Source: Pseudobdellovibrionaceae bacterium
GTDB lineage: Bacteria > Bdellovibrionota > FAC87 > UBA2466 > JACKAF01
Direction: 5' to 3'
DNA length: 64,000 nucleotides
NCBI GenBank assembly: GCA_020635235.1
Contig: JACKAF010000001.1
Coordinates: 178,380 to 242,379, forward strand
In this document: positions 11,389-49,454 of the stretch, one piece after another
Layout: each line of letters begins with the position of its first letter
How positions within the stretch are numbered: the stretch's first letter is position 1
Position numbers and translations under genes: made by a program
The notes under the pieces: generated by a model
Databases searched by the model: none
What the model was told of the DNA's origin: nothing
Seen by the model: only the letters and a program-made list of their open reading frames with translations

Positions 11389-14300
11389 CTAGAAGCAATC
11401 TCTCGAAATACTGAGAATATTTGAGGCGGGCGCGTAATTTTGCTCCTGGAATTCCGTTGGCATCCCGGGGTTTGTCATGTCGAAGTTTTCCATATTTTCG
11501 TCGTGATTCCAGTTTGCAAAAGACTGCCCAAACACCGCTCCTGTGCGAGCCGCTCCGTTTAGATCACAGTACGGCCACGCGCCGATTGCACCAATCTGGG
11601 CAACACAGAAATTCGCGACAGTCTTTTTAAGGTAGCGTTCGGCTTCTTCTTTTTCGCCCTCAAGCTCAAACGAACCGGTAGCACAGGTTCTATCTGTCTT
11701 GCCTCCCAAAAAGTTGGAAGCAATATGCACTCCAGATTCATTCGGGGAGAAAAGTCGAACGTAGGTCGCACCCGCCGTTACATAATAACCGTCCTCGGAA
11801 CCCATCGCAGTCATGTAGCTAGTGGAGGAGTAACCGTCGACATTTCGCACGCGGCCCAAGGGGGACCCGCCGGAGACATAAACACGATCCTGACCATCTA
11901 CCGCTACAGCAAACGGGAGTTTAAGTTTCGCCTGAGAAGCGGGTCCACCATCACCCGAATCACCCATTTGGCCAGTTCCAGCAAAAACTTCCCAGTTCCC
12001 GGCCGGCTTTTTTCTCCAAACCTTATGGCTTAAAGCCTCCGGAACATAAAGAGTGCCGTCCGAAGACACCGCAATGTCAGTAGCGGACTGAAAGGTCGCT
12101 CCCGCCGCTGCATACCAGCAATGGCCACGGGTCAGGTAGGTAGCCTTCCGGGCGACCTGATCAATCTTAACTACATAGTTCGTCGAGACATCCACGCCGC
12201 CGCTATTGGAAGGATCCGACGTCATGATATGACCGCTCGTAACCACATACACGTTTTTGGCCGCGTCCACCGCGACACCCACCGGAAAAGTCGTGTAAGC
12301 GGAGCATTGCTCCGCCGGGGGATCCGGTTCCGGAACATATTCGTCTGAGCACGGTATTTCTACTGAGTTGCCTTCACTATCGGTCTCATACCAGGGCGTA
12401 CACGTGCTTGCGTAATAGCCTGTGTCACTGATGGGTGCATTAACTTCACTGTCATCAGGTCTCGCGTCGCAGCCGCGGTTCAAAAGATCGGTCACGACCC
12501 CCGCTTGCGTAACTTTTAGAACTCGGTGGTTGTCGGTGTCCGCAACATAAACGCTTCCGTCCTTATCGACCGCGAGGGAGCGCGGGTATTCTAGTTTGAC
12601 CTCGAGAGGCGCACCGAGGTCGCGGCTACAACCGGGCTGTCCAGTACCCAAGAAAGGATCCACAACCATGTCACCCTCCTCATCCCGGTGAATGACCCAA
12701 ACGCGATGGTGACTTGCATCGACATAGTAAATTGAACCGTCGGGCCCGATTGCCACGTCCGAAGCTTTTTCCAGCTGGGTGATGGAGGCGAGGCGTTTTT
12801 TCGGCTCCACGCCAGGCACCTTCCCGAAAACGGTTCGGTACAACCCGTCTGCCCCGATGGACCGCACGTGCCTGTCCGGTCTACCGTCGCGGTCATTATA
12901 GATAAAGAAGAGGCGATCACTCGTGCCCGCTTCGGTCGAAGGAATTGCGGTCACAGAAATTACAATCGGCAAGGATTCTGTGGTACTTGGCACGCCGCCT
13001 TCGGGGAACGTATAAGTACCGCCGTAGGCGTAGGGGCTGACCCCATTTCCAGCGATGGCCGTGACGACTTTGGTCGCCAGATCAAGGCGGTGCAGACCTT
13101 TTTGCGAAGAGAAATACATGTTGTTCCCAGAACCGACACTAATGTGCCTTGGAACAAGACCACCGGTTATATACTTATCAGCGACCAAAGTGCCATTTTG
13201 ATCGATATGGTAGATACTATTTCCCATGGTGATATATATCTTTGAGCCGTCGAGGCTAACCGCAAGATCTTTCGCCTGATAGAGAAGTGCATCCCGAGCT
13301 ACGGTCGAAGCCATCCCTCCATCGGGCGACCCCATCATCGTACAGTTCTCTGGCAGGGAATCTACGGAAGTTCCCGCATTGTACATGGTTTCCGGATCAC
13401 ACGTTGCGTAGTAGTCAGGATCCGACGGATCCATCGTTGAGCAAGCGTCGTTGTACTCGCTAGACTGCCGTATTACTGCGGCGCGGGCGTCCATATCCAC
13501 GAGCCAGTGGTCTTTCGCCCAATTCTTATAGTCTGTTTGATAGTTTGTAGGATCAAAGGCCCCGGGACACGGGCCCTTACCCGCAAATCGGTATACAGTT
13601 GTGCCGGTCGGATCGATTCGCCGAACAACATTTCTACCCTCAACCAAATACAATGAGCCGTCTTTACCGGCCGCATAGCCCATAATGTTATAAAGGTCAA
13701 AACCCGTGCTATAGTTGCCCCATTTCACGGTATTTGCCGGCACCTGATCGTAGACCATGGTTGCCGCTTCAATCGAACTAGTCTCCGCCACGAACTTGAG
13801 ATCATCGCCCTTAATCATATAGATTTTCCAGCGCTCTCCGGATGTCGTGTACATGGGATCCATAGTCGACATCGTCCAATCCCATGGGTTGTATTGGATC
13901 TTGCTGAGAACCCAGATAACGCCGGGGTTCTTAGGATGGCAGGTAGTGTAGAGCGTAGGGTGTAAGTTTGTTTTTAATCGATGTGCAGTGTTGCCCGGGG
14001 TAAGCGTATCGGATGGGTTGGCGGAACCTGCAAAAAGTTCAGCGGCGCCATCTAAATTCACTTTGTAAACAAATCCCTGCGAGGTCACGTAGTAGGCGTT
14101 TCCATCAAAACAGCCAGACTCCGCCGGGTCAATTTGCACCGCACGGGGGTTAAATTTTAGCGTTTGGTAACCCGCATATTCAGTGTCTGAAATTTGCCCT
14201 TTGGAGCCCGCTAAGAATACCTGAGGTATCGCAAATACAAATCCGTAGGCCTCTACCTCGATCAGGGTAACTGTCGCCGTTCTGGTATCTGTATCCACTA

Positions 14301-14793
14301 CAACGCCGTTTCGTACGTCTTCTTTTGTTAAATGGAAGTCAACGGAGGTGGTCTTTTCTTCGTAAACACTAATGTCACAAGTATGAGTGGTCCTGTCGGG
14401 AGAACTCGTACAACTGATACTACGAATGTTGCTTTCTTCACTGGCGGGAGGATCTGTCCAGCTCAGGCGCACCGAGGTTTCGACGTTACGTAACTCATTT
14501 CCGTTTTCTTTGTTAACCGTGTAACACTGGACCGTGAAATCTTTCGAGCTCTGTTTCTTTTCTCCGTCCAACACGCAAACCGCTTCGGAATCCATGTTCG
14601 CGCCGCCGACGTTTCGTCCCACGCCATTGTTGGGGAGCGCGGCCAACTCTTCAAAGCCTTCATCGCCGTTACTCCCCGTACTTCCGCTACCCGAACCGCT
14701 GCTCTTGTTACCAAACATGGCAAACGGACACGCCGTTAACGTGAATAGAAAAAAGACGTAGATAGACGATTGTAGATAAGGTCTTAATTTCAC
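11389..14793 (-). CDS. giant NHL-repeat lipoprotein (copy 1) with a Cys-rich C-terminal domain
   Basis: 1134 aa. Lipobox FLFTLTAC. NHL-type repeats (YVADTDNHRVLKV, YYVDASHHRVWVI). Paralogous to 44056-47064. Both end in a conserved four-Cys domain terminating in -CF. Confidence 0.7.
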   Translation of the reverse strand: MKLRPYLQSSIYVFFLFTLTACPFAMFGNKSSGSGSGSTGSNGDEGFEELAALPNNGVGRNVGGANMDSEAVCVLDGEKKQSSKDFTVQCYTVNKENGNELRNVETSVRLSWTDPPASEESNIRSISCTSSPDRTTHTCDISVYEEKTTSVDFHLTKEDVRNGVVVDTDTRTATVTLIEVEAYGFVFAIPQVFLAGSKGQISDTEYAGYQTLKFNPRAVQIDPAESGCFDGNAYYVTSQGFVYKVNLDGAAELFAGSANPSDTLTPGNTAHRLKTNLHPTLYTTCHPKNPGVIWVLSKIQYNPWDWTMSTMDPMYTTSGERWKIYMIKGDDLKFVAETSSIEAATMVYDQVPANTVKWGNYSTGFDLYNIMGYAAGKDGSLYLVEGRNVVRRIDPTGTTVYRFAGKGPCPGAFDPTNYQTDYKNWAKDHWLVDMDARAAVIRQSSEYNDACSTMDPSDPDYYATCDPETMYNAGTSVDSLPENCTMMGSPDGGMASTVARDALLYQAKDLAVSLDGSKIYITMGNSIYHIDQNGTLVADKYITGGLVPRHISVGSGNNMYFSSQKGLHRLDLATKVVTAIAGNGVSPYAYGGTYTFPEGGVPSTTESLPIVISVTAIPSTEAGTSDRLFFIYNDRDGRPDRHVRSIGADGLYRTVFGKVPGVEPKKRLASITQLEKASDVAIGPDGSIYYVDASHHRVWVIHRDEEGDMVVDPFLGTGQPGCSRDLGAPLEVKLEYPRSLAVDKDGSVYVADTDNHRVLKVTQAGVVTDLLNRGCDARPDDSEVNAPISDTGYYASTCTPWYETDSEGNSVEIPCSDEYVPEPDPPAEQCSAYTTFPVGVAVDAAKNVYVVTSGHIMTSDPSNSGGVDVSTNYVVKIDQVARKATYLTRGHCWYAAAGATFQSATDIAVSSDGTLYVPEALSHKVWRKKPAGNWEVFAGTGQMGDSGDGGPASQAKLKLPFAVAVDGQDRVYVSGGSPLGRVRNVDGYSSTSYMTAMGSEDGYYVTAGATYVRLFSPNESGVHIASNFLGGKTDRTCATGSFELEGEKEEAERYLKKTVANFCVAQIGAIGAWPYCDLNGAARTGAVFGQSFANWNHDENMENFDMTNPGMPTEFQEQNYAPASNILSISRDCF

Positions 14794-14952: not shown

Positions 14953-16455
14953 TTGAGGTGTGTGCTGAGCACACCCGCATTCGGAAAACCTAGGCCTGCC
15001 TGTCTAGCTACAAACGAAGCCATCGCTTACGCCGAAGCCATCGATTCGCTTCCGCTGGCCCACTCAACAACTGTGGCCCGTCCGATGACGCTCCCGCCGC
15101 GTACGAGAGCGTCAGAAGCCGTCGATCCGGAAGGCCATCTCACACCGTATCTCGAACTTGCCAATAGCCCAACGATCCACACGGAAACAAAGCGTCTCTA
15201 CGATGAAGCGTTTCGACTCATGGCAGAGCGCGATCTGGCGGCAAAGCGCTATGAGTTTCTAGCAGCAAAAAAATCGCCAGCGGATCCCGTTCAACACGCT
15301 AAAGATCTCGCAGCCGCAGAAGCCGCATACTTCCAAAAGCGCGCAGAGTACGATGCCAATCAAAGGCTCCTTGGACGCAACCGCGCCGCTCTTCGACTCA
15401 AAGAGCTGCACGACAAGGGAAAGATCCTTCAGGTCATCACCCAAATGGACGCGAGCCAAATGCATGCTCTCAACCACAGTGGTGAAAAAGATGTCCCGCC
15501 TTGGGGAGACGAAGCCCCTCCTTTGCTTCTGCTTTTGAAACCCGACACTGTTCTTACCCGTGTCTATGGACAGGACGCCGGTATGTTTGGGGGTTTTGCG
15601 ACTTTTCCTAGCCGCGCTGTTTACGAACCACGTACCAATGCGAGTGTGAACCGCAACCGCCTAGCCACGCCCCACGGCGACTATGAAAACACCCTCACCC
15701 ACGCAGTGAAGTTTACCTTTGCTAAACCACTTCAACCCGGGGAGGATCCGACAACTCAACCGGTACTGGCGTGGTACGGAACAACGGGGCCAATCTACCC
15801 CACCGGCGGTGAGGTGAGAGGCGCGGTGCGCGCACCGAACGGTGATCAATACGCGAGCGAAACTCTAGGGAGTCCCGGTGGTGGTGTCCAAGTCATTATC
15901 GGAAACGGAAGATGGAAGTACTACGCGGACGGATCCGAGCACAAAATTCCAGCGAGCATAAAGTGGCATTACGAAACCGCCCCGGGCGGCGAAAAAATAG
16001 TCGTTTTCGATTCCGGAAACCCTTATATGAACGAAAAGGACAACGTCATTCGGGACGTCACTATTGTTAGCAACCTACACGACATACAATCTCACATCAC
16101 GATGGATCTATTCCGCTTAAGACGCGAGCAGGTTTTTGCCGGCATCAGGGCGGGCGAGCCTTACACGGAATACCGCCAAACCACACGCTTACCCGAAGAC
16201 TGGGTCGATACACCGGAATATAGAGAGAACTACAATAGAATTTACCGAACGCTTGCAGCTATAAAGCAAACGAATATGGCGATCGTGCAAGCGGGCGCCC
16301 GCTTTCCCGAGGCAGAGGTACGTTCTGCCAGTCTAACTCTGCGCGACGTACAGATTCTGGAACAGGAACTAAGTGAGCTGAAACCCGCCGGAACTAGCTA
16401 TGCCCCGGTAAACGCGTCAGTAGGAGTGTCCACTGGCACCTACGTTCCCAATTAA
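14953..16455 (+). CDS. hypothetical protein (start uncertain)
   Basis: 500-aa ORF with TTG start. No signal peptide or known motif. Located between NHL copy 1 and cyclase copy 1. Confidence 0.45.
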   Translation: MRCVLSTPAFGKPRPACLATNEAIAYAEAIDSLPLAHSTTVARPMTLPPRTRASEAVDPEGHLTPYLELANSPTIHTETKRLYDEAFRLMAERDLAAKRYEFLAAKKSPADPVQHAKDLAAAEAAYFQKRAEYDANQRLLGRNRAALRLKELHDKGKILQVITQMDASQMHALNHSGEKDVPPWGDEAPPLLLLLKPDTVLTRVYGQDAGMFGGFATFPSRAVYEPRTNASVNRNRLATPHGDYENTLTHAVKFTFAKPLQPGEDPTTQPVLAWYGTTGPIYPTGGEVRGAVRAPNGDQYASETLGSPGGGVQVIIGNGRWKYYADGSEHKIPASIKWHYETAPGGEKIVVFDSGNPYMNEKDNVIRDVTIVSNLHDIQSHITMDLFRLRREQVFAGIRAGEPYTEYRQTTRLPEDWVDTPEYRENYNRIYRTLAAIKQTNMAIVQAGARFPEAEVRSASLTLRDVQILEQELSELKPAGTSYAPVNASVGVSTGTYVPN

Positions 16456-16507: not shown

Positions 16508-18790
16508 ATGCGATCCACAGTCTCAAATTGGCGCGGACAACGGTACCTGTCACCGCGTCAGGCCGCAATCATTGCCGCGGTGAGTCTTTTGGCGGTTTTC
16601 TTGATTCTGTCATCTCTTGGGGTGGAAAACGCCGCCTCCAACTTTGATCTTCGTCTCCTTTTTACAACCCGATCGAAATTGGGCAAGAATCCCAATTGGG
16701 ATCCCAAGCTGAAAGTATTCGCCTATGACGATCTAGCCGTCTCACTCCTCCAGAAGAGTGAACCTCCGGCCGGCATTCTTGCGGAAACCCTACGCGCCAT
16801 AAAAGCCCAAAAACCAAAAGCCATATTAATAGACAAGATGTTTAGCTACCGCCTAGAAGGGGATGTGGAAAAGCTCAAGGCCGCGATTGGCGAAGTTCCC
16901 CCCATCTACACAAGCGCATCGTTTTCTGACTCCGCGATTCCCCACCGCAATCCAATTTCCAATGAAGTCCTTATCAACCAGTCGAGCGGGTGGAGAGTCT
17001 CGGAGGCCGATTGGATACCCAACGCGACTTTCGCGTACGGGGCCAATGCAACGTACGGCTCAGCGTTCACAAAGGTAGGCCACCTCAATCTCGCAAAGGC
17101 CGAAAGGATCCAGCCGGTCGTGCGCGTCGGTGAGGCACTGCTCCCACACTGGGCACTTCGCTGGTGGGATCAAGCGGAGCTAAACCCATCGGGCATCACG
17201 AGCTCTTGGGGGCAGATTCCCGTAACTGGTAACGGAACGACTCTAGTTAACCTTGTCCCCTTAGAGGTCTTCGGGAAAAAAGCGCGCTCCATTGCTGCGG
17301 TCTTTTCTAGGATTCAGAAAAACGCGCCCATCGACGAAATCGAAGAGGGCGACATCGTCGCGTTGGTGATGGGTCTTTATTCTGGAAAAGAAACCTATAT
17401 ACGGACAGCGATCGGCTCCCTCCCACGTTCGTACTTGAACATTGCAACTCTGAATAGTGCTTTGTCGGATCAGTGGATCCACGAATTCGATCATCCTATT
17501 CTAGCGAGTCTCGGTGCGGGCGCACTTGCTCTTCTAACAGCTTTCTTTCTTCGGGGATTACTGTTTTGGGCGTCGGCGGGCCTTTTCTCGCTCTTTTGGA
17601 TAGGCTTTGCTCTCAGTTTGTTTGCCTACGGGAGTACTACGCTGCCATTACTTGCTCCAGTAGTTTCGTACGTCCTTTGCGGCGGAACCTACTTCGCGTT
17701 GAACATGGTCGCTGGCGAAAAACGGGTGCGGTCGCTCAAACAATCTCTGGAAGGCCTCGTTGAGCCTGAGAAACTGAAGCAACTCATTCGGAATTCCAAC
17801 GACATCCAATGGCAGCCAAGACTGCAGCAACTCTCCGTGATGTTCGTCGACATTGTAGGGTTCTCGAAAAGCGCTGAGAGAAAAGACCCGAGAGAGGTTT
17901 TTCTAAATCTGCGGAGTTTTCTCGAAAAAGCAAGCCACGTAGTACACGAACACAACGGGATCATCGACAAAACGCTTGGAGACGGACTGCTTGCCTTTTT
18001 TGGGTATGAATTCGATGGGAGCTCTTCAAACGATCACGCTGACAACGCTGTCCAATGTGCGGTAGCCCTACAACAAATGGCGCTTGAATACGCTCTCGAG
18101 TGCGTGGCGGTTAAGGCTCCAGTTTACCCACTTCGAATTGGAATTCATACGGAGGAGGTTTTTATCGGAGATCTGGGCGGAGCCAACCGCGTCGATTTTA
18201 GTATCGTCGGTCAAGGCGTTAATTTTGCTCAACGCTGTGAAGCTGCCTGTGAGTCCTTTCGTGTGATCTTCTCAGACGCCACAAAAAAATCGCTCAAACG
18301 AGGCTTCGATAGTACCTTCAAACTTCACGAGCGGGCGATCCAAATCAAACACCATGACGAGGCCTTTGCCGTTTGGGAGCTCGAACCCTTGGAGGAAAAT
18401 CGAACTCAGGTACAGCAAGTCATTCGACACCACCGACAACAAATTGGTTTAGAGCGCGAAGAATCCCGGTTCACTCTCCGCCAAAGTCTAGAGGCCCACT
18501 TCAAAGCGAATGACATCCAGGCCGAGATCTTAAATTTCTCGCGATCTGGTTTCCTACTTTTTACTTCCGGCTATTTGGGCGTGAAGAGCCGCCTGCAATT
18601 GCGTACGCCCCATCTCCAAAAAATGGGCAATTCCTTTCCCCAGCTCCTGGACGTCGAAATCCGTTGGGGCCAGCCACATCGAGACGGCTACATTCACGGC
18701 GTGCGCATTCTAAACCTAAATGATAACGAGAAGAACGCGCTCTTTGAGACACTCGCCTCCTCAAACCCCTCGCTGGCTGGCGTTGGTTAG
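16508..18790 (+). CDS. CHASE2 sensor, class III adenylate/guanylate cyclase, C-terminal PilZ-like domain (copy 1)
   Basis: N-terminal TM, then a periplasmic CHASE2-like region (KLKVFAYDD...). A TM cluster follows. Cyclase homology domain VMFVDIVGFSK...GDGLLAFFG. C-terminal RHHRQ...NFSRSGF resembles the PilZ RxxxR/DxSxGG pattern. Confidence 0.75.
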   Translation: MRSTVSNWRGQRYLSPRQAAIIAAVSLLAVFLILSSLGVENAASNFDLRLLFTTRSKLGKNPNWDPKLKVFAYDDLAVSLLQKSEPPAGILAETLRAIKAQKPKAILIDKMFSYRLEGDVEKLKAAIGEVPPIYTSASFSDSAIPHRNPISNEVLINQSSGWRVSEADWIPNATFAYGANATYGSAFTKVGHLNLAKAERIQPVVRVGEALLPHWALRWWDQAELNPSGITSSWGQIPVTGNGTTLVNLVPLEVFGKKARSIAAVFSRIQKNAPIDEIEEGDIVALVMGLYSGKETYIRTAIGSLPRSYLNIATLNSALSDQWIHEFDHPILASLGAGALALLTAFFLRGLLFWASAGLFSLFWIGFALSLFAYGSTTLPLLAPVVSYVLCGGTYFALNMVAGEKRVRSLKQSLEGLVEPEKLKQLIRNSNDIQWQPRLQQLSVMFVDIVGFSKSAERKDPREVFLNLRSFLEKASHVVHEHNGIIDKTLGDGLLAFFGYEFDGSSSNDHADNAVQCAVALQQMALEYALECVAVKAPVYPLRIGIHTEEVFIGDLGGANRVDFSIVGQGVNFAQRCEAACESFRVIFSDATKKSLKRGFDSTFKLHERAIQIKHHDEAFAVWELEPLEENRTQVQQVIRHHRQQIGLEREESRFTLRQSLEAHFKANDIQAEILNFSRSGFLLFTSGYLGVKSRLQLRTPHLQKMGNSFPQLLDVEIRWGQPHRDGYIHGVRILNLNDNEKNALFETLASSNPSLAGVG

Positions 18791-18894: not shown

Positions 18895-19875
18895 ATGAAA
18901 TTAACGCCAGCTTCATTGCGCCACGGCTTCATTTTGCTCGTTCTGTCTGGAATTGCCCTAACGGCAAGCGGCTGCTTTTTCCGGCTTGCGGGAAGCGGCG
19001 AGGACTCGCTGTCCAATTTCCCCCCCATTTCAGAAGATGACTTCACCACCACCAACCCGATCTTCGGAAGCGGAGGCGGGGAAGAGAATGTAGCCTCGAA
19101 ACCTTTTTGCCAGCTTTCCCATTCGGAAAAGTTTGAGGAACCGGGAGCTGAATTCTCGTGCTGGTGGAGCCGCTCGCCGTCTTTGATTGCGCAGCCGCTC
19201 CCCGGGCAGATCGTTGCCGTGTCGGTCTTTGATCGAAAAAATTCTTATTTTTGGAGAGCGGTCGATTTCAAAGTGAATGAAGACTATGTCGAAGGCTCCA
19301 GTGACCCGGCCTTCTATTTTTTGGACAAGACTGATTCGTTCTTCGGCCCCGGAGGCGATCTCATTCCATTTTTCGGAGACCAGATCGAAATTCGGGTCGT
19401 TTTTAGAAGAATTCTCGCACTCCCGCATACCAATATTGCCCTGCCCTTTGACGTAAACGCAGACGGTATCGTGGATGCGGGCGACGTAGCAGCTTTGAAT
19501 GAAGAATTTGAGGTCAATGGGTATCGGCGGATGGACTCAAGTATCACGTCCCCGCCCTCAATATTCGTGGACGTCGATAGAAACCTGTTCTTCAACCACG
19601 ACGATCTAGATCTGCTCAATATGTACCTTTCCCCTCCACACCCGTGGCAAAACCCCCTCAACCGTTTGGACGTAGATAACAACGGCGTGATCGCACCCGT
19701 CGATATCATGCTACTCCAAAACTTGATGACCCAATATGGCCAAGAAATAGATTTGGCGATAGACCCCCCATGGAGAAGCAAGCCAGTCGGCGTTCTTTAT
19801 GCGGATCCCAGCGGGGACAATCGACTGACCCCCCTTGATGTCGAGATGATCATCAATTACCTCAATTCGGACTAA
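18895..19875 (+). CDS. lipoprotein with dockerin-type calcium-binding repeats
   Basis: Lipobox LTASGC. Four dockerin-like repeats (DVNADGIVDAGDVAALNEEF, DVDRNLFFNHDDLDLL, DVDNNGVIAPVDIMLLQNLM, DPSGDNRLTPLDVEMIINYL). Confidence 0.6.
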   Translation: MKLTPASLRHGFILLVLSGIALTASGCFFRLAGSGEDSLSNFPPISEDDFTTTNPIFGSGGGEENVASKPFCQLSHSEKFEEPGAEFSCWWSRSPSLIAQPLPGQIVAVSVFDRKNSYFWRAVDFKVNEDYVEGSSDPAFYFLDKTDSFFGPGGDLIPFFGDQIEIRVVFRRILALPHTNIALPFDVNADGIVDAGDVAALNEEFEVNGYRRMDSSITSPPSIFVDVDRNLFFNHDDLDLLNMYLSPPHPWQNPLNRLDVDNNGVIAPVDIMLLQNLMTQYGQEIDLAIDPPWRSKPVGVLYADPSGDNRLTPLDVEMIINYLNSD

Positions 19876-19919: not shown

Positions 19920-20570
19920 ATGAGGTTGCCTATGCGTTTGCACCGTGCCGTACTTTTTGGCTGCTCGTTTTTGCTGCTAGCCTTGGGAGGATCCAAACCT
20001 ACCGAAACGCCTACAAACGAACATCTCCCCACGTTTGATCGTATTAGCTTAAAGATAGCTGTGAAGCGCGATAAGAACACCTACCGCCTACGTACAGCAG
20101 GCCAGCTAAACTTCCTTGTCACTAGCCCAGTCCAGGGGGAAATCGCCTCCGTTTGTGAGCTCCCGGTTGTGTTGGAGTATTTGGGTGATAAGAACGACTT
20201 TGACAAAAAAGCCTCGAGCAAGATGGATCGCATCGCTAAACAGATGGGGCTCGAGCACTCCTCGGCTCAGGAGTTTTCGAGTGATCTCTTCTTTTTGAAG
20301 GAAGGTAAGTTTGCGGAGGAATTTGCGGGTCGCCTAGACGATCTTCTCACCCGCTATGAACTTACGCCGGTGCTGCTCGAAAAAACTGGGGAAGTGATCT
20401 TCGCTAAAACCGAAAAAGGGTTCGCTTTTAAGTTGCCCCTCGATACAAAGCTTGAATCGCAGATGTCGATTATTATCTCGCTCCGCCCAACAGACGACGC
20501 GGGGACGAGCGCTCTTTGCCAGCAAATCATCGGCAAGGGGTGGAGGCGGGCAAAGCCAACTCCGGGCTAG
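19920..20570 (+). CDS. hypothetical secreted protein
   Basis: Signal peptide MRLPMRLHRAVLFGCSFLLLALGGS. No known motif. Confidence 0.45.
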   Translation: MRLPMRLHRAVLFGCSFLLLALGGSKPTETPTNEHLPTFDRISLKIAVKRDKNTYRLRTAGQLNFLVTSPVQGEIASVCELPVVLEYLGDKNDFDKKASSKMDRIAKQMGLEHSSAQEFSSDLFFLKEGKFAEEFAGRLDDLLTRYELTPVLLEKTGEVIFAKTEKGFAFKLPLDTKLESQMSIIISLRPTDDAGTSALCQQIIGKGWRRAKPTPG

Positions 20571-21496
20571 TTTAGCCGATCGATGCGATCTCGTTTTTTA
20601 GGCCGCTCGATGGATCGGGCGATGCGCTTTTCGTTCACATCGAGGATAAAATCCCAATTGAATTTGACCTTGTTGTTCTTCAAAAGTTCCTGTGGTGGGT
20701 TGGGAAATCTTCCGACATCTTTAAAGGCTTTGATGGCGGCCTCATCCAAATACCCGGATTGGCTACTCGCTACAACCGCCAAATCAACCAGATTGCCCTC
20801 GCTATCTAGTTCCACGTAGACTTTGGTCCTTTTAATTCCATCCTTGAGTTTTCTTTGGCTCATCACCAAAGCGCGTGCACGGCGCTGCACTTCTGGCCGC
20901 CATTTGGGCGCGATTTTTTGTTTGATCCGATCGAAATAGATCCAGTGAGCAAACTCCTTGGTATTAAGAAGTGTGCGGGGCCCGCCGTCTATTCCCTCCA
21001 GGTATTCGTCCCGGGTGCTGCCAAAGCGAATTTCAAAGTCTGGAACACCGTGTTCGGATTTGTTAGGGCCCGCCGTCTGATCTCCCATCGTGTACGCATC
21101 GGGCAATAGCCCCAAACTTTGCAAAGAATCCTCTGAGCCGCCCGAGGCGACGGGGTCGCCTGTGAAAAAGGCCTCGCCTATCGGGGCGCGGGTTTCTTTG
21201 TCGACGGTTTGGCTGCGATCACTCAACTGATCTTCGCTCCCCGCTCTTGAGTCGTCCAGTGCGGCTTCTGTACGCACGAGCTTCTTGCTCTGTTCCGACT
21301 CGGGAACGACTCTCTCGCCGAGAACAGACTCGGCTTCCGAGATCTCAATGAGATCTTCCTCAGAAAGCGGATTTTTAGGCTGCGCTATAAAAATCTGCGG
21401 CGGCTGTATCTGAACCAAAAGAATTACCGCGTGAACAGCTACAGAAAGACAGAGATAGAATGAGCTAGAAAGCCGTTTGAGGGTTTTATCGAGCAT
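20567..21496 (-). CDS. TonB C-terminal-domain protein (membrane-anchored, acidic linker)
   Basis: N-terminal TM anchor. C-terminal roughly 90 aa (KVYVELDSEGNLVDLAVVASSQSGYLDEAAIKAFKDVGRFPNP) fits the TonB_C pattern. No adjacent exbBD. Confidence 0.5.
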   Translation of the reverse strand: MLDKTLKRLSSSFYLCLSVAVHAVILLVQIQPPQIFIAQPKNPLSEEDLIEISEAESVLGERVVPESEQSKKLVRTEAALDDSRAGSEDQLSDRSQTVDKETRAPIGEAFFTGDPVASGGSEDSLQSLGLLPDAYTMGDQTAGPNKSEHGVPDFEIRFGSTRDEYLEGIDGGPRTLLNTKEFAHWIYFDRIKQKIAPKWRPEVQRRARALVMSQRKLKDGIKRTKVYVELDSEGNLVDLAVVASSQSGYLDEAAIKAFKDVGRFPNPPQELLKNNKVKFNWDFILDVNEKRIARSIERPKKRDRIDRLN

Positions 21497-22117: not shown

Positions 22118-23656
22118 ATGTCCGCGCTTTTCAAAAATTTGTTTCTGCTCTCCCTGATAGCACTTGCCGGTTGTACCCGGATTACCGGAGGTAACGGCGA
22201 AGTTTTCGGGGGCGGCGATATTACCAAACAGCTTCTCAATCGCATCCGCAATACGATCCTGTTGGACTCAGTCCGAAACTTAGCGGATGGGCGACAAGTC
22301 AGCTGCAACCTTGAAGCGCTTTGCAGCGAGCACTCGGAGACGCGCGTTTGCCAATCGCGTCCTGTACTGAACCAAACCGAAGTTCAAGCCTGTGAATACA
22401 TCATCCAAAGAAACATCGGAAAACTTCTCTCCGTAGTGCAGTCAACTCAAGTTACGATGGAAAGCTCCGAAAAACCTATTTTTGATAATGGGGCACGCGT
22501 CTCTGCAATTACCTCATTATCCAGTAGCGGCCCGATTCGAGTGGACGTTGCCCGCGTACGGGAACAAAACCTGACGGATTCGGAAATCGCCACACTCTTT
22601 GCCCATGAATTCCTCCACAAAGTTCAGGATCTAATGCCTGGAACGGGATACCTGGATGACGAGGACTCGCTTTCGCCGTTTAGCCAGGGAAGAAAACTCT
22701 TAGATGCCATCGCAACGGTAGTGGGAATCGGCACGCTTAGGAGAATAAGCGCCAAAACCGCTCGCATCGCGGTCGGAACAGACTCGGGAATTCTACGCAC
22801 TCTTCTGGTCTCAGAACAAAAACTCGCTTCTGATCTTTTTCAGCAGCTGGACGCCTTTGGTGAAGACGCCGCACCCGCCATTGCCTCAGGAGATCTGAAC
22901 GGAGACGGGACAGCGGATCTGGTTCTTTCAAGCGCACTCTCCTCACAAGTGATCGCTATCGATGGAAAAACCGGCTCCCAGCTCGCGAGCTGGGTAGGTT
23001 TGGGCGCCGGTTCATCCGTCGCGGTAGGAGACGTGAACGGCGACGGTCTCCCCGATGTCCTCGTGGGTACGCCTCCTGGCCCCGTAAACAAAATTGTAGT
23101 TTACGACAATTTGAACCAGTCGGAATTATATGTCCACCAACCCTATGACACCGGTTTTATCAGTGGGGTTTACGTCGCGGCAGGCGATGTAAATGGAGAT
23201 GGACGCGATGAGATCGTCTCCACCCCTCGGTTGGGCGGCGGCCCTCACCTCAAAGTTTATGATCCAATGGCCGGGATCTACCGATATGATGGATTCGTGT
23301 ACAACCCCGCCTATGTCGGCGGTGTCTCTGTTGCCGCAGGGGATTTGAACGGTAACGGCCGGGATGAGATAATTGTGGGTGCCGCTTTTGGCGCCGGTCC
23401 TCACGTTCGCGCTTTGGACGTCGTCTCCGGAACCATAGCTTATGATGGCTTCCCCTACGATCCCGGTTTCACGGGGGGCGTGCTGGTAGCCAGTGGTGAT
23501 ACGGATGGAGATGGTTTAGCAGAAATCATCACTGTGCCGCATCAAATCGAAAATTTGCCATTGAAAGTGCTTAACCCAAGAAACTCCTCGATAGCGTTTC
23601 AATTTCAGCTATCTCAGGGAGCCACGGGGCCACGCACTTTGGCTTTCATCCGATAA
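22118..23656 (+). CDS. lipoprotein with conserved N-terminal HExxH domain plus FG-GAP repeats (module A, copy 1)
   Basis: Lipobox LIALAGC. HEFLHKVQD motif. Five to six FG-GAP-like repeats (GDLNGDGTADLV, GDVNGDGLPDVLVG, GDVNGDGRDEIVS, GDLNGNGRDEIIVG, GDTDGDGLAEIITV). N-terminal 180 aa paralogous to 25355-26713. Confidence 0.65.
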   Translation: MSALFKNLFLLSLIALAGCTRITGGNGEVFGGGDITKQLLNRIRNTILLDSVRNLADGRQVSCNLEALCSEHSETRVCQSRPVLNQTEVQACEYIIQRNIGKLLSVVQSTQVTMESSEKPIFDNGARVSAITSLSSSGPIRVDVARVREQNLTDSEIATLFAHEFLHKVQDLMPGTGYLDDEDSLSPFSQGRKLLDAIATVVGIGTLRRISAKTARIAVGTDSGILRTLLVSEQKLASDLFQQLDAFGEDAAPAIASGDLNGDGTADLVLSSALSSQVIAIDGKTGSQLASWVGLGAGSSVAVGDVNGDGLPDVLVGTPPGPVNKIVVYDNLNQSELYVHQPYDTGFISGVYVAAGDVNGDGRDEIVSTPRLGGGPHLKVYDPMAGIYRYDGFVYNPAYVGGVSVAAGDLNGNGRDEIIVGAAFGAGPHVRALDVVSGTIAYDGFPYDPGFTGGVLVASGDTDGDGLAEIITVPHQIENLPLKVLNPRNSSIAFQFQLSQGATGPRTLAFIR

Positions 23657-44055: not shown

Positions 44056-47000
44056 TTGTTCCAAAAAAGCTTACAAATTCTCAAATCCCTCTCCTTTGTA
44101 TGTCTGATTATGGCCAGCCCTGCCTGCCTTAAGCTCAACGATAGCGGTGCGAGCTCAGGCGGCGACGGCGAAGACTTGGCGAGTATTCCCACCTCTGGCA
44201 CGGGCCGCAATGCGACCGTTATCGCCACGGCGACGAACAGTTTGGCCCGGTGTAGTTTCACCCAAATGGGTCTCGTGGAATTTTCCCTAGAGTGCGCGGT
44301 CGTAGTCGTCCAGAACAATCAGGAGTTGGTAGCCAACGAAGCTGAAAATGTTGAGTTCAACTGGGGTACGCCCAGTCGCGTTTCCGGCGCGGAAATTCTC
44401 ACTTCGACCTGCGAATCCGGTTACAAGAACTTGAGCCACAATTGCGATCTCGTATTAGACGAGCCCCGAACGACTGAAGTCGAAGTCGGCTTGTTGCGAA
44501 CAAACACCGTAACGACAGAAGCGGATGAGTTATCCGCACTCGTTTTGCTCGCCTATTCAGTTTCTTCCTATGGCTTGGTTCCGCAAATACCGATCGCGTT
44601 CAACCCTGGCCCGCGCGGACTGCTCGGTTTGAGCGGCAAAGACCGATCGGAAATGGGCTTCGCCACCCGAAGTTTTGTGGCGGACAACATCTCAGTCGAT
44701 GAGATCAAGTCGCAGTGCTGGGACGGCACCCACAAGATCTCTACTGAAGGCTACATCTATTCCCGAAACGCCACTACCGGACGAGCGGAAATCTTCGCGG
44801 GTACCGCGAACACGCTAAACACTTTGGATTATCCGAACACCGAACACCGCCTGCGCGTTCACTTTGAGCCGGGAGATCTCTTCCTGGCGTGTAGTCCCGC
44901 CAAACCCAATCTCCTCTATGTTCTAGTCCGTCAAAAGGGTGTCGACCCCAACGGCTATTACGTTCCGGATGCGCTCCTAAAGATATATAAAATAGAGAAC
45001 GACATGGTTTCGGTGGTCGTTCGCGCTAATCCCGGCGAAGGCGAGTACAACTGGTTAACGCCCCCCCTTGTCGAGGCCGCGGTGAACGCCAACCTCGATT
45101 CTTTAGGCGGCGGTGCCGTTGGCGACGATGGTGCACTTTATTTTTCCGAACCCGGACGCGGTATCGTGCGAAAGCTGGACGCCGACGGTGGCAACATCCA
45201 CCTTTACGCCGGCGCTGGCCCTTGTGCCACCTACAATCCGGATCCTGATGAAAATGGAAACGATCAAAACCCTCCGTGGTGCACGTTTACCGGAAATGGT
45301 TATCTCGATGGCCCCATCAGCCAATCTTTGCTCAGCTCGCCCAAGGGCTTGGCTTATCACAACGGCAAACTCTACATTGCCGATGAAATGAATCGCCGGA
45401 TCCGTGTCGCGGAAAATGGAATGGTTTCGACATTCGCTGGCGGTGGCACTCAAACCACTGACGGTGCGAGCCCGTTGGCCGCGCAGTTGGGTTACCTTCA
45501 AGATGTCAGTGTTGACTCTGCCGGTACTATTTATATTGCCGACTCCGATGTGAACCGGATCAAGAAGATTGAAAATAACCAGGTCATAACGATTGTTGGC
45601 TCAGGCGACGAAGGAAACCCTTCGCACGGAGACAGCGCTCTTTCGGCTGCCGTCTTTCATCCCTTTTCAGTGGTGTCGGGTAGCCCTTCACAGGTTTATT
45701 TTGCTTTTCAGTTGTTTGAACAAGTCTCGCCGGCTCCAAACGGGAGGCGAGTTTTTGGTTTGAATGAAAGCAACGAGCTCAAAGTTGTTTTTGGCGAGGC
45801 CACCATAGATTTGAATTTGAGCCCAGATACCCGCTTTGCGCAGTTAAGAGAAGCGTCTGGCATCGCCTTTCACCCGAATGGAGACATTTACTACACGGAC
45901 GCCCAGAACCATCTCGTCATGCGGATTCACAAAGGAAGTAGAGGACAGGACGTCGTCAGTCGATTTGCGGGCATTGGGCTAAGTGGCTGCACGAATGTTC
46001 TCGGTGGCAATCCGGCTACCCTAGTATTGAATGAACCGACCGGTATCGCCATTACCGAAAACGGTGATATTTTTGTGAGCGACACAGGAAACCATCGTAT
46101 CCTCAAATTCCACGAAGGTTTGTTTGTGTACAACATCTCTCGGGCGACTGGACTAAATTGTAATGAGAGTCCGTTTGCTCCATACTACAATGGCTATAAC
46201 GAGCCCCTGTACGACGAAGAAGGAAATGAAATTCCGCAACCTCCAGCGGTTTGCGGCATCTACACGCCGTACCCGACAGCCATGACGGCAGACCCCTCTG
46301 GCAACGTCTTTGCTATCTTGGGCGCTTCCCAGGAAATCGTAAAAATCCCTGCTGAAGGCGCCCCTCGCTACTACGTAGGTGGGTGCGATTCCATTGCAAC
46401 TCTCCCCACGCGTGAAAAGCTCATCGGAATTACTTCCGACGGTGATGGAAACATTTACGTTTCGGACGCCGAGACTTCAAAAATCCACCGAATTGGAAGC
46501 GATAACGTCGGCGTCACCATCGCCGGTACCGGAACGCGTGGAAGTGCAGGCGACGGAGGCCCGGCTCTCAGCGCTCAATTTGAGTACCCCGCCGCACTGG
46601 CGTACGACAATGATCGCCTTTATGTTGCAGACGGCGGAAGCGCCATCGTGCGCATGCACATGGCTGATGGTGCGGCCAATCCCGACTTCAGCGATATCCC
46701 ACCGGGGTATGACATATCTTCTGGAAGCACGCGGATCCGTGTGATCGAAACTCAACAAGATACAACGCTTCGCGTTAGTTTGCTTGTGGGTGGCCGCCTG
46801 AATAACACTTGCGGAACAGGTACTGTCCAGGGTTCCAGTGAATCCTCAAACCTATTCGATCAATTGAGTGCCAGTTTGTCCAACTACTGCCGCGCACGCA
46901 TCCGAGCGCTTGCCGGCAAAAACACGTGCGACGCAGAGCAGAACCAGACTTCGCTCGTTTTCGCGCAAAGCTTTTCTTCCGTCTACGAGAACGAAATCCT

Positions 47001-47064
47001 CGAAGCCTTCTCCCGTAACGCGCCGTCCTCAAACGTCATCAAGGTGGATCGACAGTGCTTTTAA
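44056..47064 (+). CDS. giant NHL-repeat secreted lipoprotein (copy 2) with Cys-rich C-terminal domain
   Basis: 1002 aa. Signal peptide with ASPAC. NHL repeats (YIADSDVNRIKKI, FVSDTGNHRILKF, YVSDAETSKIHRI). C-terminal region aligns with copy 1 and ends ...KVDRQCF. Confidence 0.7.
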   Translation: MFQKSLQILKSLSFVCLIMASPACLKLNDSGASSGGDGEDLASIPTSGTGRNATVIATATNSLARCSFTQMGLVEFSLECAVVVVQNNQELVANEAENVEFNWGTPSRVSGAEILTSTCESGYKNLSHNCDLVLDEPRTTEVEVGLLRTNTVTTEADELSALVLLAYSVSSYGLVPQIPIAFNPGPRGLLGLSGKDRSEMGFATRSFVADNISVDEIKSQCWDGTHKISTEGYIYSRNATTGRAEIFAGTANTLNTLDYPNTEHRLRVHFEPGDLFLACSPAKPNLLYVLVRQKGVDPNGYYVPDALLKIYKIENDMVSVVVRANPGEGEYNWLTPPLVEAAVNANLDSLGGGAVGDDGALYFSEPGRGIVRKLDADGGNIHLYAGAGPCATYNPDPDENGNDQNPPWCTFTGNGYLDGPISQSLLSSPKGLAYHNGKLYIADEMNRRIRVAENGMVSTFAGGGTQTTDGASPLAAQLGYLQDVSVDSAGTIYIADSDVNRIKKIENNQVITIVGSGDEGNPSHGDSALSAAVFHPFSVVSGSPSQVYFAFQLFEQVSPAPNGRRVFGLNESNELKVVFGEATIDLNLSPDTRFAQLREASGIAFHPNGDIYYTDAQNHLVMRIHKGSRGQDVVSRFAGIGLSGCTNVLGGNPATLVLNEPTGIAITENGDIFVSDTGNHRILKFHEGLFVYNISRATGLNCNESPFAPYYNGYNEPLYDEEGNEIPQPPAVCGIYTPYPTAMTADPSGNVFAILGASQEIVKIPAEGAPRYYVGGCDSIATLPTREKLIGITSDGDGNIYVSDAETSKIHRIGSDNVGVTIAGTGTRGSAGDGGPALSAQFEYPAALAYDNDRLYVADGGSAIVRMHMADGAANPDFSDIPPGYDISSGSTRIRVIETQQDTTLRVSLLVGGRLNNTCGTGTVQGSSESSNLFDQLSASLSNYCRARIRALAGKNTCDAEQNQTSLVFAQSFSSVYENEILEAFSRNAPSSNVIKVDRQCF

Positions 47065-47111: not shown

Positions 47112-49454
47112 GTGAATAAGACAAAGTCATTTTGGAACCGCTTTGCCCCCCGGGACATTTCCTTGCAGCGGGGGCTTGTGATCGTAGCAGTCTGCACGGC
47201 GGCGTTTTCAGGTTTGTACTCCTCACAATGGGGAGAGCGCATCGAACGACGAGCCGCACATCCTATCGCGTTTCAGATCCGGCATTTGCTCGGCATGGAT
47301 CCGAAGATCGATCCGCGCCTTAAGGTGTACGCCTTTGATGACTCCACACTTAAGTACGTCGACGAAGAGGATCTCACCCTCAAGCAGTGGGCCGACACGT
47401 TGGAAAGTTTCATAAAGGCGAATCCGAAGGCAGTGATTATTCCGAAATTGTTTGGGACTCCGAGCGGCCGAGAGTATGCAAAACATTTCGAGAAAAGAAT
47501 TCAGCAACTCCCGTTCCCCGTCATCACCGCGGCTGTGTTGACTCACGACGCTTCCCGGGCACCCCTAAGAATGGAGCAAGATTTTTCAGACCTGGAAAGC
47601 CTAGCGGCGGCTGGAAAATTTCAGGAAACTCTACAATCGCTGACGCTTCCCAAAGCAAGCGATCTGAATCCCATAGGACCTCACCCAACTATTGAAAAAG
47701 CCTTCTCACACGTTGGCCATATCAATTACTATGACGATTTCTTCTTTGAAACTTTTGTCCGAGTTAATGAAAAAAAAGCTCTGCCTGCGGCGCCTCTGCT
47801 GCTGGCAGACACTCTATATTTTGACGACGGGGATCTTTATGCGGACGGAACAGAAATACCGACCGACAGCCGTGGTCGAGTTCTCATTAACATGGGAGAC
47901 CCCTCAAAGTACTACGAGCGGATCTACGCGCTGAAAAGCGTGATCAAAAGAGCGTCCCAAGGAGAGCAGGTCACCACATTACCGGATAACTCCGTGGTAC
48001 TTCTCCTTTTTATGTTTTCGCCAAACGTAGACATGACACAGTCGCCTTTTGGTCCCATCCCTGAGGGCCTGGTTTTAAACGCATTCGTCAATAGCGTCCT
48101 GACAAAACAGTGGGTTCGCTTTTTGCCTATGGGTGTTTTCTGGGTGGCGGTTTTCTGTTTAATCGGTGGCGCTCTAGGGCTGTACTTTCAAGGAAGTCAG
48201 TTTTGGATCACGCTGGCGGCAGGGACCTTTTCCATTTTCGTTGCCGGCTGCGCGGCCTTTTCCTATGGGTCTATCCATACTCCATGGTTTTTCTCCGGTC
48301 TGGGACTCTTGACCACCGGGGCGACGGTATTTCTAGAAAAGTATCGGCTAATCGACAAAAAAACTCGTCGTGTTCGGGCTGCATTGGACGGCTTGGTTCC
48401 TCAGCGACAACTTCTCGAAATAATCAAACAACCCCTTGCAGAATTAACCAAACCCTCAGAACACGTCACTACAATCATGTTTATCGACGTGATCGGTTTT
48501 TACCTAACGGCTGAGACGCAAGCACCGGCAAACGTTTTCCTCTCACTGAAAGACCTGCTTTCCCGCTTAACAAACACCATTCATAGTTTTGATGGAATCG
48601 TCGACAAAACCACTGGAGACGGGATGCTGTGCTTTTTTGGTTATGACTACGTAACCGGAAAAGTAGATCCAGAGCACGCCAATAAAGCGCTGGCCTGCGC
48701 TATCGAGATCCAGCGAACAAGCCTGGAACTCAATCTAAAGGCGCACGAAAATCACAAAGCCCTCTTCCCCTTGCGCATCGGACTCAATACGGGGAACGTT
48801 TTTATCGGTGATTTGGGGAACTCTCAGCGAATGGATTTCACCATCATCGGTCATGCTATTAATTTTGCGAAAAGGCTTGAAAGCGCCTGCGAAGACTACT
48901 GCGTAATGTTAGGCGCCTCCACTTATGACTTGATTTCCCTGGAGCCCGAGGGAGTGGGAATCAAGAAGAAGATGTTGCAGATCAAGCACTACCAGGAACT
49001 GATTGAAGGGTACGAAGTAGATCCACTGGCCCAACTGCAGGAACAACGGCAGGCCGCACTGAGCGCCTACTGGAACTTCGCACACAAGGCTCAGCACAGT
49101 CCACGCTGGGAAGTACCAGAGAGCGTCCGAATAGAGGCCATCACAAAAACCCACGGCAAAGGTCGAGTCGTTAATTTTTCCTTAGGTGGAATGGCAATCG
49201 AACTGGATCAGTACCTCGCCCGCGGAGTAATTCTCGAGTTTCATATCGAATCCCAATCACCAGAACTAATCGAACAGCTAAAGAAGATCGGACTGCCTTC
49301 TTTGGTGGGAGAAATCCGCTGGGGGCGTCCCAAGAGCAACGGATTATACCTGCATGGGGTCGCGCTGCAAAATCTTACGGAAGATCAATCTAAGGAAATC
49401 CAACGTATTCTCCGCTCGACGGTGACCTCCACAACGCTCCGAAAAACGGGCTAA
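47112..49454 (+). CDS. CHASE2 sensor, class III adenylate/guanylate cyclase, C-terminal PilZ-like domain (copy 2)
   Basis: GTG start. Same architecture as 16508-18790 (RLKVYAFDD..., IMFIDVIGF...GDGMLCFFG). C-terminal VNFSLGGMAIE is a canonical PilZ DxSxGG-type motif. Confidence 0.75.
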   Translation: MNKTKSFWNRFAPRDISLQRGLVIVAVCTAAFSGLYSSQWGERIERRAAHPIAFQIRHLLGMDPKIDPRLKVYAFDDSTLKYVDEEDLTLKQWADTLESFIKANPKAVIIPKLFGTPSGREYAKHFEKRIQQLPFPVITAAVLTHDASRAPLRMEQDFSDLESLAAAGKFQETLQSLTLPKASDLNPIGPHPTIEKAFSHVGHINYYDDFFFETFVRVNEKKALPAAPLLLADTLYFDDGDLYADGTEIPTDSRGRVLINMGDPSKYYERIYALKSVIKRASQGEQVTTLPDNSVVLLLFMFSPNVDMTQSPFGPIPEGLVLNAFVNSVLTKQWVRFLPMGVFWVAVFCLIGGALGLYFQGSQFWITLAAGTFSIFVAGCAAFSYGSIHTPWFFSGLGLLTTGATVFLEKYRLIDKKTRRVRAALDGLVPQRQLLEIIKQPLAELTKPSEHVTTIMFIDVIGFYLTAETQAPANVFLSLKDLLSRLTNTIHSFDGIVDKTTGDGMLCFFGYDYVTGKVDPEHANKALACAIEIQRTSLELNLKAHENHKALFPLRIGLNTGNVFIGDLGNSQRMDFTIIGHAINFAKRLESACEDYCVMLGASTYDLISLEPEGVGIKKKMLQIKHYQELIEGYEVDPLAQLQEQRQAALSAYWNFAHKAQHSPRWEVPESVRIEAITKTHGKGRVVNFSLGGMAIELDQYLARGVILEFHIESQSPELIEQLKKIGLPSLVGEIRWGRPKSNGLYLHGVALQNLTEDQSKEIQRILRSTVTSTTLRKTG

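Follow-up and report, generated by a model that had tools for sequence, protein, structure and literature searches.

A class III cyclase–PilZ fusion from a Pseudobdellovibrionaceae bacterium as a candidate c-di-GMP-gated receptor adenylate cyclase

Introduction

The two global second messengers that bacteria use most widely are cAMP (cyclic AMP) and c-di-GMP (cyclic di-GMP). In the cellulose synthase BcsA, binding of c-di-GMP at a C-terminal PilZ domain activates catalysis allosterically. The present analysis concerns a gene at positions 16508–18790 (+) of a 64,000-nucleotide stretch of DNA (the window; contig JACKAF010000001.1 of assembly GCA_020635235.1, Pseudobdellovibrionaceae bacterium), whose predicted product joins a PilZ domain to a class III nucleotide cyclase. 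This gene is referred to as copy 1, and a paralogous gene in the same window as copy 2.

BcsA is the nearest functional analogue of the two copies. Like them, it is a membrane enzyme that carries a canonical PilZ domain behind the catalytic one and the RxxxR motif in the linker between the two, and the PilZ structures of BcsA and Alg44 were among the best fold matches of the copy 1 PilZ domain. In contrast to BcsA and Alg44/Alg8, the catalytic unit is here a class III nucleotide cyclase of the homodimer type and not a GT2 glycosyltransferase, the output would be a second messenger instead of a polysaccharide, and a periplasmic sensor is added.

By descent, the nearest proteins are CHASE2 adenylate cyclases without PilZ. 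Three of these from other phyla (P0016, P0019 and P0039) have Pfam CHASE2 and Guanylate_cyc domains at a similar total length and share with the copies the order of N-terminal transmembrane helix, periplasmic domain of CHASE2 type, three transmembrane helices and class III cyclase, but no Pfam PilZ is on record for them, and identity reached only 23–27% over about a third of the protein. The Sinorhizobium meliloti proteins CyaD1, CyaD2 and CyaK are further CHASE2 receptor adenylate cyclases that are not known to carry PilZ.

The closest solved cyclase domains, those of Pseudomonas aeruginosa CyaB (3r5g), Spirulina CyaC (1wc0/1wc1) and Synechocystis Cya2 (2w01), were crystallised as domains without PilZ, and the regulatory domains of these enzymes differ from those of the copies described here. 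CyaB shares the Lys and Thr substrate pattern with the copies. Among PDB entries, no match reached further than the cyclase and the helix preceding it; no more than 284 columns were aligned to the 760-residue model.

In concept, Bd1971 of Bdellovibrio bacteriovorus, a cAMP-sensing EAL phosphodiesterase of c-di-GMP (PMC6717892), comes closest. It comes from the same broad lineage and, as proposed for the copies, wires cAMP and c-di-GMP together at the protein level in one polypeptide. It differs in working in the opposite direction (cAMP is sensed and c-di-GMP degraded) and in being built of a cyclic nucleotide-binding and an EAL domain, and it is not homologous.

The cross-regulation linking c-di-GMP with cAMP is described as "extremely limited", and the listed links leading from c-di-GMP to cAMP are transcriptional (mLife 2024, PMC11139211). 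Surveyed PilZ fusions include REC, GGDEF, EAL, HD-GYP, MCP, CheC, HlyD-type and glycosyltransferase domains (Galperin & Chou, bioRxiv 10.1101/814665; see also Amikam & Galperin), and these resemble the present copies in that a canonical PilZ domain is appended to a signal-transduction output domain. Cyclases were not among the fusions listed in that 2019 survey, the text of which contains neither the word "adenylate" nor the word "cyclase" (bioRxiv 10.1101/814665). No publication describing a cyclase–PilZ fusion was found in the literature searched, the coverage of which was incomplete. Being visible to any domain database, the architecture is called undescribed and uncharacterised here, but not unseen.

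PilZ Domain of the Two Cyclases

The interval 16508–18790 (+) contained exactly one open reading frame (ORF), encoding 760 amino acids (aa) followed by a stop codon. Based on the ORF, Pfam profiles, full-length alignment with relatives and an AlphaFold2 (AF2) model, its product was described as a CHASE2/transmembrane/class III cyclase/PilZ protein. Both genes are read here, from sequence and models, as probably encoding c-di-GMP-gated receptor adenylate cyclases with a CHASE2 and a PilZ input, and a probability of about 0.6 is assigned to this reading. The interpretation that two messengers are coupled gains weight from the fact that catalytic residues and PilZ motifs alike are strongly conserved among the family members.

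In copy 1, the PilZ domain was assigned to residues 650–751 (18455..18760, +) and consisted of a beta-barrel and a C-terminal helix. Pfam PilZ (PF07238) matched residues 650–747 with 28.1 bits (E 2.6e-6), and the isolated C-terminus reached 32.3 bits. The corresponding domain of copy 2 (residues 663–768, 49098..49415, +) scored 33.7 bits (E 4.8e-8). A C-terminal PilZ domain in both cyclases had been suggested by the original prediction, and this was borne out, since both scores lay above the Pfam cut-off of 22.5 and the best fold matches were all PilZ.

Family conservation was evaluated in an alignment of 62 full-length sequences, comprising the two window copies and 60 members obtained from the cluster search described below. 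Of these full-length proteins, 49 matched Pfam PilZ at E ≤ 1e-3. When the C-terminal segments of the two copies and of ten relatives were taken alone, 11 of the 12 matched it.

The AF2 model of the last 156 residues of copy 1 (predicted local distance difference test, pLDDT, 84.1) begins with the final cyclase hairpin, which is followed by a single helix, a beta-barrel and a helix at the C-terminus. When this model was compared with the PDB by Foldseek, each of the 31 best matches was a PilZ domain, in most cases from a structure with bound c-di-GMP; they included Alg44, PP4397, YcgR, VCA0042, BcsA, MotI, PlzA and MapZ. The probability was 1.00, the best E-value 5e-4 and the target-normalised template modelling (TM) score about 0.66. 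In the AF2 models, the barrel strands spanned residues 655–734 and the helix residues 739–751, with pLDDT values of 84–92.

A chance likeness to PilZ, or a decayed remnant of such a domain, would reduce the proteins to ordinary CHASE2 adenylate cyclases with an inert tail. In favour of this, the domain is short and has simple motifs, its Pfam scores of 28 and 34 bits are modest, and a profile search of PDB sequences returned no match. Against this explanation, both scores exceed the curated cut-off, the best matches of a confidently predicted fold were PilZ structures only, and the motifs are kept in hundreds of diverged relatives. Moreover, mean pairwise identity within the family was higher for PilZ (31%) than for the CHASE2 sensor (26%) and the transmembrane part (22%), the cyclase showing 46%. 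We regard a chance or vestigial PilZ as highly improbable.

Copy 2 was also compared with its 84%-identical syntenic ortholog P0120 (assembly GCA_041391485.1, locus L085). The nonsynonymous divergence (dN) between them was 0.146 for the sensor, 0.08 for the membrane part, 0.056 for the cyclase and 0.12 for the helix and PilZ together; dN alone is given, as saturation of the synonymous sites made the ratio to synonymous divergence (dN/dS) unusable for single domains. From identity and dN taken together, the PilZ domain appears to be maintained at least as strictly as the sensor.

c-di-GMP-Binding Motifs

The accepted c-di-GMP motifs of PilZ are RxxxR and [D/N]hSxxG (Galperin & Chou, bioRxiv 10.1101/814665), and both were found in canonical form in copy 1. 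The RxxxR motif is REESR (residues 650–654, 18455..18469, +), placed at the start of the Pfam match and, in the AF2 model, in the loop directly before barrel strand 1 (655–665). The second motif, NFSRSG (residues 676–681, 18533..18550, +), begins 22 residues downstream of it. Within the family, the first Arg of RxxxR was present in 55 and the second in all 62 sequences, while the positions of [D/N]hSxxG were occupied by N/D in 62, an aromatic residue at h in 60, S in 61 and G in 62. Both motifs were intact in 54 of the 62 members.

The strings quoted in the original prediction were all located, RHHRQ and NFSRSGFLL in copy 1 and VNFSLGGMAIE in copy 2, yet their interpretation had to be changed. 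RHHRQ, taken there as an upstream hallmark of PilZ in copy 1, reads RxxRx, lies at residues 638–642 within the linker helix, and occupies a column that is not conserved; it was rejected in favour of REESR. Copy 1 had further been thought to carry a degenerate DxSxGG and to be possibly blind to c-di-GMP, but NFSRSG fits the accepted motif exactly and REESR is intact. The choice of the defective copy was thus reversed, as the damaged motif is found in copy 2.

In copy 2, the RxxxR position reads QHSPR (residues 661–665, 49092..49106, +), whereas the [D/N]hSxxG motif is present as NFSLGG (residues 688–693, 49173..49190, +). The surrounding segment AHKA[Q/R]HSPRWEVPES is otherwise identical to that of the ortholog, which has RHSPR; the Gln codon CAG (49092–49094) of copy 2 stands against the Arg codon CGA. 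Judged by this alignment, this lineage has recently lost a key contact to c-di-GMP. As predicted from the motifs, copy 1 should respond fully to c-di-GMP, and copy 2 probably binds it more weakly or not at all.

The part of the original prediction that two second messengers are linked in one polypeptide was retained as far as the cyclase–PilZ fusion is concerned, on the grounds of sequence, profile, predicted fold and conservation of catalytic and binding residues; its roles for the two copies were exchanged.

These motifs also bear on whether the PilZ domain controls catalysis at all. It might instead serve as a docking or localisation module, binding c-di-GMP or nothing, which would tether the cyclase to a partner or to the cell pole, or sequester c-di-GMP. 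PilZ domains acting only through protein contacts are documented, for instance a non-binding PilZ of Xanthomonas (Galperin & Chou, bioRxiv 10.1101/814665), and copy 2 together with about 13% of the family keeps the domain without a complete motif pair. A pure scaffold, on the other hand, would not need the two motifs that are under strong constraint in 54 of 62 members. The geometry, with a single short linker helix followed by the RxxxR hinge, is suited to allosteric transmission, and neither the fusion order nor the linker length varies across the family. A docking role without control of catalysis is accordingly rated as unlikely, and gating of the cyclase by PilZ is preferred.

Catalytic Domain and Substrate

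The class III catalytic domain of copy 1 was delimited to residues 438–628 (17819..18391, +) by Pfam, PDB sequence matches and Foldseek. Pfam Guanylate_cyc (PF00211) matched residues 438–609 with 65.1 bits, and in copy 2 residues 452–609 with 61.9 bits (cut-off 21.9 in both cases); from Pfam and the family hidden Markov model (HMM), the copy 2 domain was assigned to residues 452–640 (48465..49031, +). Among solved cyclase domains, those of Cya2, CyaB and CyaC came closest in sequence, with E-values from 1e-14 to 1e-19, and the predicted copy 1 fold was superimposed on Cya2, CyaC and CyaB by Foldseek with TM scores of 0.85–0.90 and a root-mean-square deviation of about 2 Å.

The copy 1 domain includes the terminal beta-hairpin IKHH...ELEP. 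The conserved pattern "IKHH..E..DP" was considered as a special linker and ruled out, because it forms this terminal hairpin of the cyclase fold. It follows that a single short helix, some 18 residues long, attaches PilZ to the cyclase (629–646, 18392..18445, +; delimited by AF2 and alignment, with the non-conserved RHHRQ inside it). In the AF2 model of copy 1, this helix joins the last cyclase strand directly to the RxxxR loop of the PilZ barrel.

The catalytic residues of copy 1, identified by family conservation and alignment to CyaB and Cya2, span positions 17849..18235 (+): the metal-binding Asp448 and Asp492, the substrate-binding Lys488 and Ser565, and the transition-state residues Asn572 and Arg576. 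The two metal Asp residues were conserved in 62 and 61 of the 62 family members, respectively, and the Asn and the Arg in 61 each. With all catalytic residues present, the cyclase domains of both copies look active.

Where class IIIa enzymes have the substrate Asp, Thr or Ser was found in 61 of 62 sequences. The substrate pairs are K488/S565 in copy 1 and K499/T577 in copy 2. Lys488 and Ser565 align with the Lys and Thr of CyaB, whereas Cya2, whose PDB entry describes a guanylyl cyclase, has Glu at the Lys position. By the established rules for class III enzymes, Lys combined with Thr or Ser is the signature of class IIIb adenylate cyclases. Both copies are thus predicted from sequence to be class III (IIIb-like) cyclases converting ATP to cAMP.

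The substrate Lys is not uniform in the family: K occurs in 36, R in 20 and N in 4 of the 62 members, and some members may therefore use another substrate or make another product. The variation concerns the Lys488 column, all other catalytic residues being conserved.

This variability is one reason to consider that the cyclase makes cGMP or another cyclic nucleotide, or that it is catalytically silent and the protein mainly a membrane receptor for c-di-GMP. Cya2, the closest solved sequence, is a guanylate cyclase, and enzymes of the cyclase fold that make pyrimidine cyclic nucleotides are known. Both copies nevertheless show the adenine-specific class IIIb pattern of CyaB and not the Glu of Cya2, and retention of all metal-binding and transition-state residues speaks against a pseudoenzyme. 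A different product or a silent cyclase is considered even less probable than a docking role of PilZ, and synthesis of cAMP remains the preferred assignment.

A T6 homopolymer at 17996..18001 (+) lies inside the cyclase domain of copy 1. In the Logan contig SRR17907852 (L081, near 4488), 99.95% identical over 7.5 kb, T5 was present instead within the LAFFGY codons, and the cyclase gene there is broken into two called fragments, 518 and 237 aa long. The T5/T6 difference represents either a homopolymer sequencing error or a genuine frameshift variant.

Proposed Mechanism

In the proposed mechanism, the binding site for c-di-GMP would lie between the loop with RxxxR and the turn with [D/N]hSxxG, in line with the solved PilZ complexes that the model resembles. 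Since the RxxxR loop forms the hinge to the catalytic domain, binding would fix the PilZ barrel relative to the cyclase. The fixed barrel could then alter closure of the catalytic homodimer and in this way set the rate of cAMP synthesis, so that the protein would integrate an extracytoplasmic cue, received by CHASE2, with the intracellular level of c-di-GMP.

As for the sign of the effect, we lean slightly towards activation, in which c-di-GMP would relieve an autoinhibition, as suggested by analogy to BcsA and Alg44/Alg8, polysaccharide synthases under PilZ control. The reciprocal antagonism of cAMP and c-di-GMP seen elsewhere favours inhibition.

Several points count against gating by c-di-GMP in the form proposed. 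The hinge mechanism is argued from connectivity in monomer models, and the product is made less certain by the variable substrate Lys. Thirteen of the 62 family members missed the E-value of 1e-3 for Pfam PilZ, and the C-terminal profile found no match at E ≤ 1 among PDB sequences, from which the PilZ domains of this family appear to be divergent in sequence, though not in fold. Finally, no gene for GGDEF, EAL, HD-GYP or a cyclic nucleotide-binding protein/cAMP receptor was present among the window ORFs scanned with Pfam, which comprised most of those with at least 250 aa. Oligoflexia are among the groups in which HD-GYP phosphodiesterases of c-di-GMP are prevalent, which makes use of c-di-GMP in this class plausible.

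A direct post-translational route from c-di-GMP to cAMP would be the first of its kind, taking the form of a PilZ-gated receptor adenylate cyclase that acts as a coincidence detector for intracellular c-di-GMP and an extracellular cue sensed by CHASE2, possibly together with the co-duplicated putative NHL lipoprotein; this fuller claim is put forward tentatively, at somewhat less than even odds. The fusion adds adenylate cyclases, as predicted from sequence, to the enzymes known to carry PilZ. If the fuller claim is true, such cyclases and cAMP-activated phosphodiesterases of the Bd1971 type could complete a feedback loop between the two messengers in Oligoflexia and in Bdellovibrio-like bacteria, and the paralogs with intact and damaged RxxxR would provide c-di-GMP-sensitive and -insensitive channels in the same cell. 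A single purified protein would suffice for a direct test of how c-di-GMP controls cAMP at the level of proteins, and the fusion would offer a natural design for a c-di-GMP-controlled cAMP generator, usable as a biosensor or synthetic-biology part.

Extent and Distribution of the Family

A word-indexed search returned about a dozen relatives at 29–33% identity. An exhaustive HMMER search with the C-terminal profile against 1.84 billion cluster representatives yielded 793 clusters at E ≤ 1e-3, of which 567 remained at E ≤ 1e-10 and 190 at E ≤ 1e-30. With few exceptions, the 150 best profile matches were proteins of about 750–800 aa in which the C-terminus was the matching part, or fragments of these. 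In the 62-sequence alignment, the cyclase was recognised in all members and CHASE2 in 44, alongside the 49 with PilZ (E ≤ 1e-3 throughout; best CHASE2 value 3e-17).

In the species-representative genomes, relatives extending through PilZ were found only in metagenome-assembled genomes (MAGs) labelled Oligoflexia, Oligoflexales, Silvanigrella or Pseudobacteriovorax, or left unclassified (L001–L008, L025). Relatives from other phyla in the same set matched the cyclase region only. As far as sequence comparison goes, the cyclase–PilZ fusion is not a one-off but defines a family, several hundred sequences strong and well diverged, in bacteria of the Oligoflexia type.

The source names of family proteins were limited to "adenylate/guanylate cyclase domain-containing", "CHASE2 domain-containing" and "class 3 adenylate cyclase". 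NCBIfam contained no specific model for the fusion and gave one weak, irrelevant match to a TOMM kinase/cyclase.

The cyclase–PilZ unit was also observed behind other N-termini: in a 515-aa protein without CHASE2 from an Oligoflexales MAG (L025, 5599–7146), and in a 586-aa protein (P0012) whose N-terminal region is different and not alignable to CHASE2. On account of these varied N-termini, the unit behaves as a mobile two-domain cassette.

Sensor Domain and Membrane Topology

The full-length AF2 model of copy 1, built as a monomer on the 62-sequence alignment, reached a pLDDT of 91.5 and a predicted TM score of 0.79. An N-terminal transmembrane helix region covers residues 16–57 (16553..16678, +), with AF2 helices at 16–34 and 37–57 and a hydrophobic stretch at 14–44. 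The periplasmic CHASE2-type sensor was assigned to residues 31–324 (16598..17479, +) from a Pfam match of 25.1 bits, just below the curated cut-off of 26.3, and from a mixed alpha/beta fold with pLDDT above 90, which in the model occupies residues 58–329.

Three transmembrane helices follow at residues 330–414 (17495..17749, +), as judged by hydrophobicity and by AF2 helices at 330–347, 350–375 and 382–414; the third of these runs on in the model as a cytoplasmic helix to the cyclase. As the sensor is preceded by a single membrane helix and followed by three, it is placed in the periplasm, and the cyclase and PilZ domains in the cytoplasm. Based on sequence and predicted structure, copies 1 and 2 are predicted to be inner-membrane receptor cyclases with two inputs. 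The architecture given by the original prediction was right in its cyclase–PilZ part and left the periplasmic CHASE2-type sensor and the membrane topology unmentioned.

Relation Between the Two Copies

Copy 2 (47112..49454, +) encodes 780 aa with the same architecture. The two copies could be aligned end to end at 28% identity (E 3e-91), which indicates that they are old paralogs. No Pfam CHASE2 match was obtained for copy 2 at E ≤ 0.1; like copy 1, it aligns end to end with CHASE2-bearing relatives. A search of the window with the family HMM revealed these two copies only and no third one.

Genomic Neighbourhood

Both cyclase genes adjoin a gene for an NHL-repeat protein. Next to copy 1 lies an NHL-repeat beta-propeller protein, a putative lipoprotein (11389..14793, −; Pfam NHL/TEN_NHL), and directly upstream of copy 2, on the same strand and with a gap of 47 bp, lies another one (44056..47064, +; Pfam NHL, 100.6 bits). 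The two are full-length paralogs with 27% identity (E 8e-93), a divergence similar to that of the cyclases (28%), and the pairing recurs at the ortholog locus of GCA_041391485.1 (L085, 885–3807). These NHL–cyclase pairs suggest an old duplication of a two-gene sensor module. The NHL protein is a possible periplasmic partner of CHASE2, as indicated by association only.

Among the loci compared across the family, the NHL pairing occurred only in this organism and its close relative. A conserved neighbourhood as a family trait was rejected, as the neighbours vary and include SBP_bac_5, PBP1, ABC ATPase, Kelch, VWA and unannotated genes. In two loci, a divergent SBP_bac_5 gene, encoding a family-5 periplasmic solute-binding protein, was located just upstream of the cyclase (L002, 3934–5778, −; L003, 3949–5652, −), and in L002 a Kelch beta-propeller protein was also present downstream of it. 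Different subfamilies may pair CHASE2 with different periplasmic proteins.

Scans for promoters and terminators around both cyclase genes gave results at chance level and were uninformative on operon structure. A 500-aa ORF without Pfam or NCBIfam match (14953–16455, +) lies on the same strand as copy 1 and stops 52 bp short of its start codon; the near-identical Logan contig retains this ORF, which may share a transcript with copy 1.

Downstream of copy 1, a secreted-looking protein with dockerin type I repeats (18895–19875, +), a TonB-C-terminal protein (20567–21496, −) and an FG-GAP repeat protein (22118–23656, +) are encoded. With these and the NHL proteins, the region is strongly cell-surface in character.

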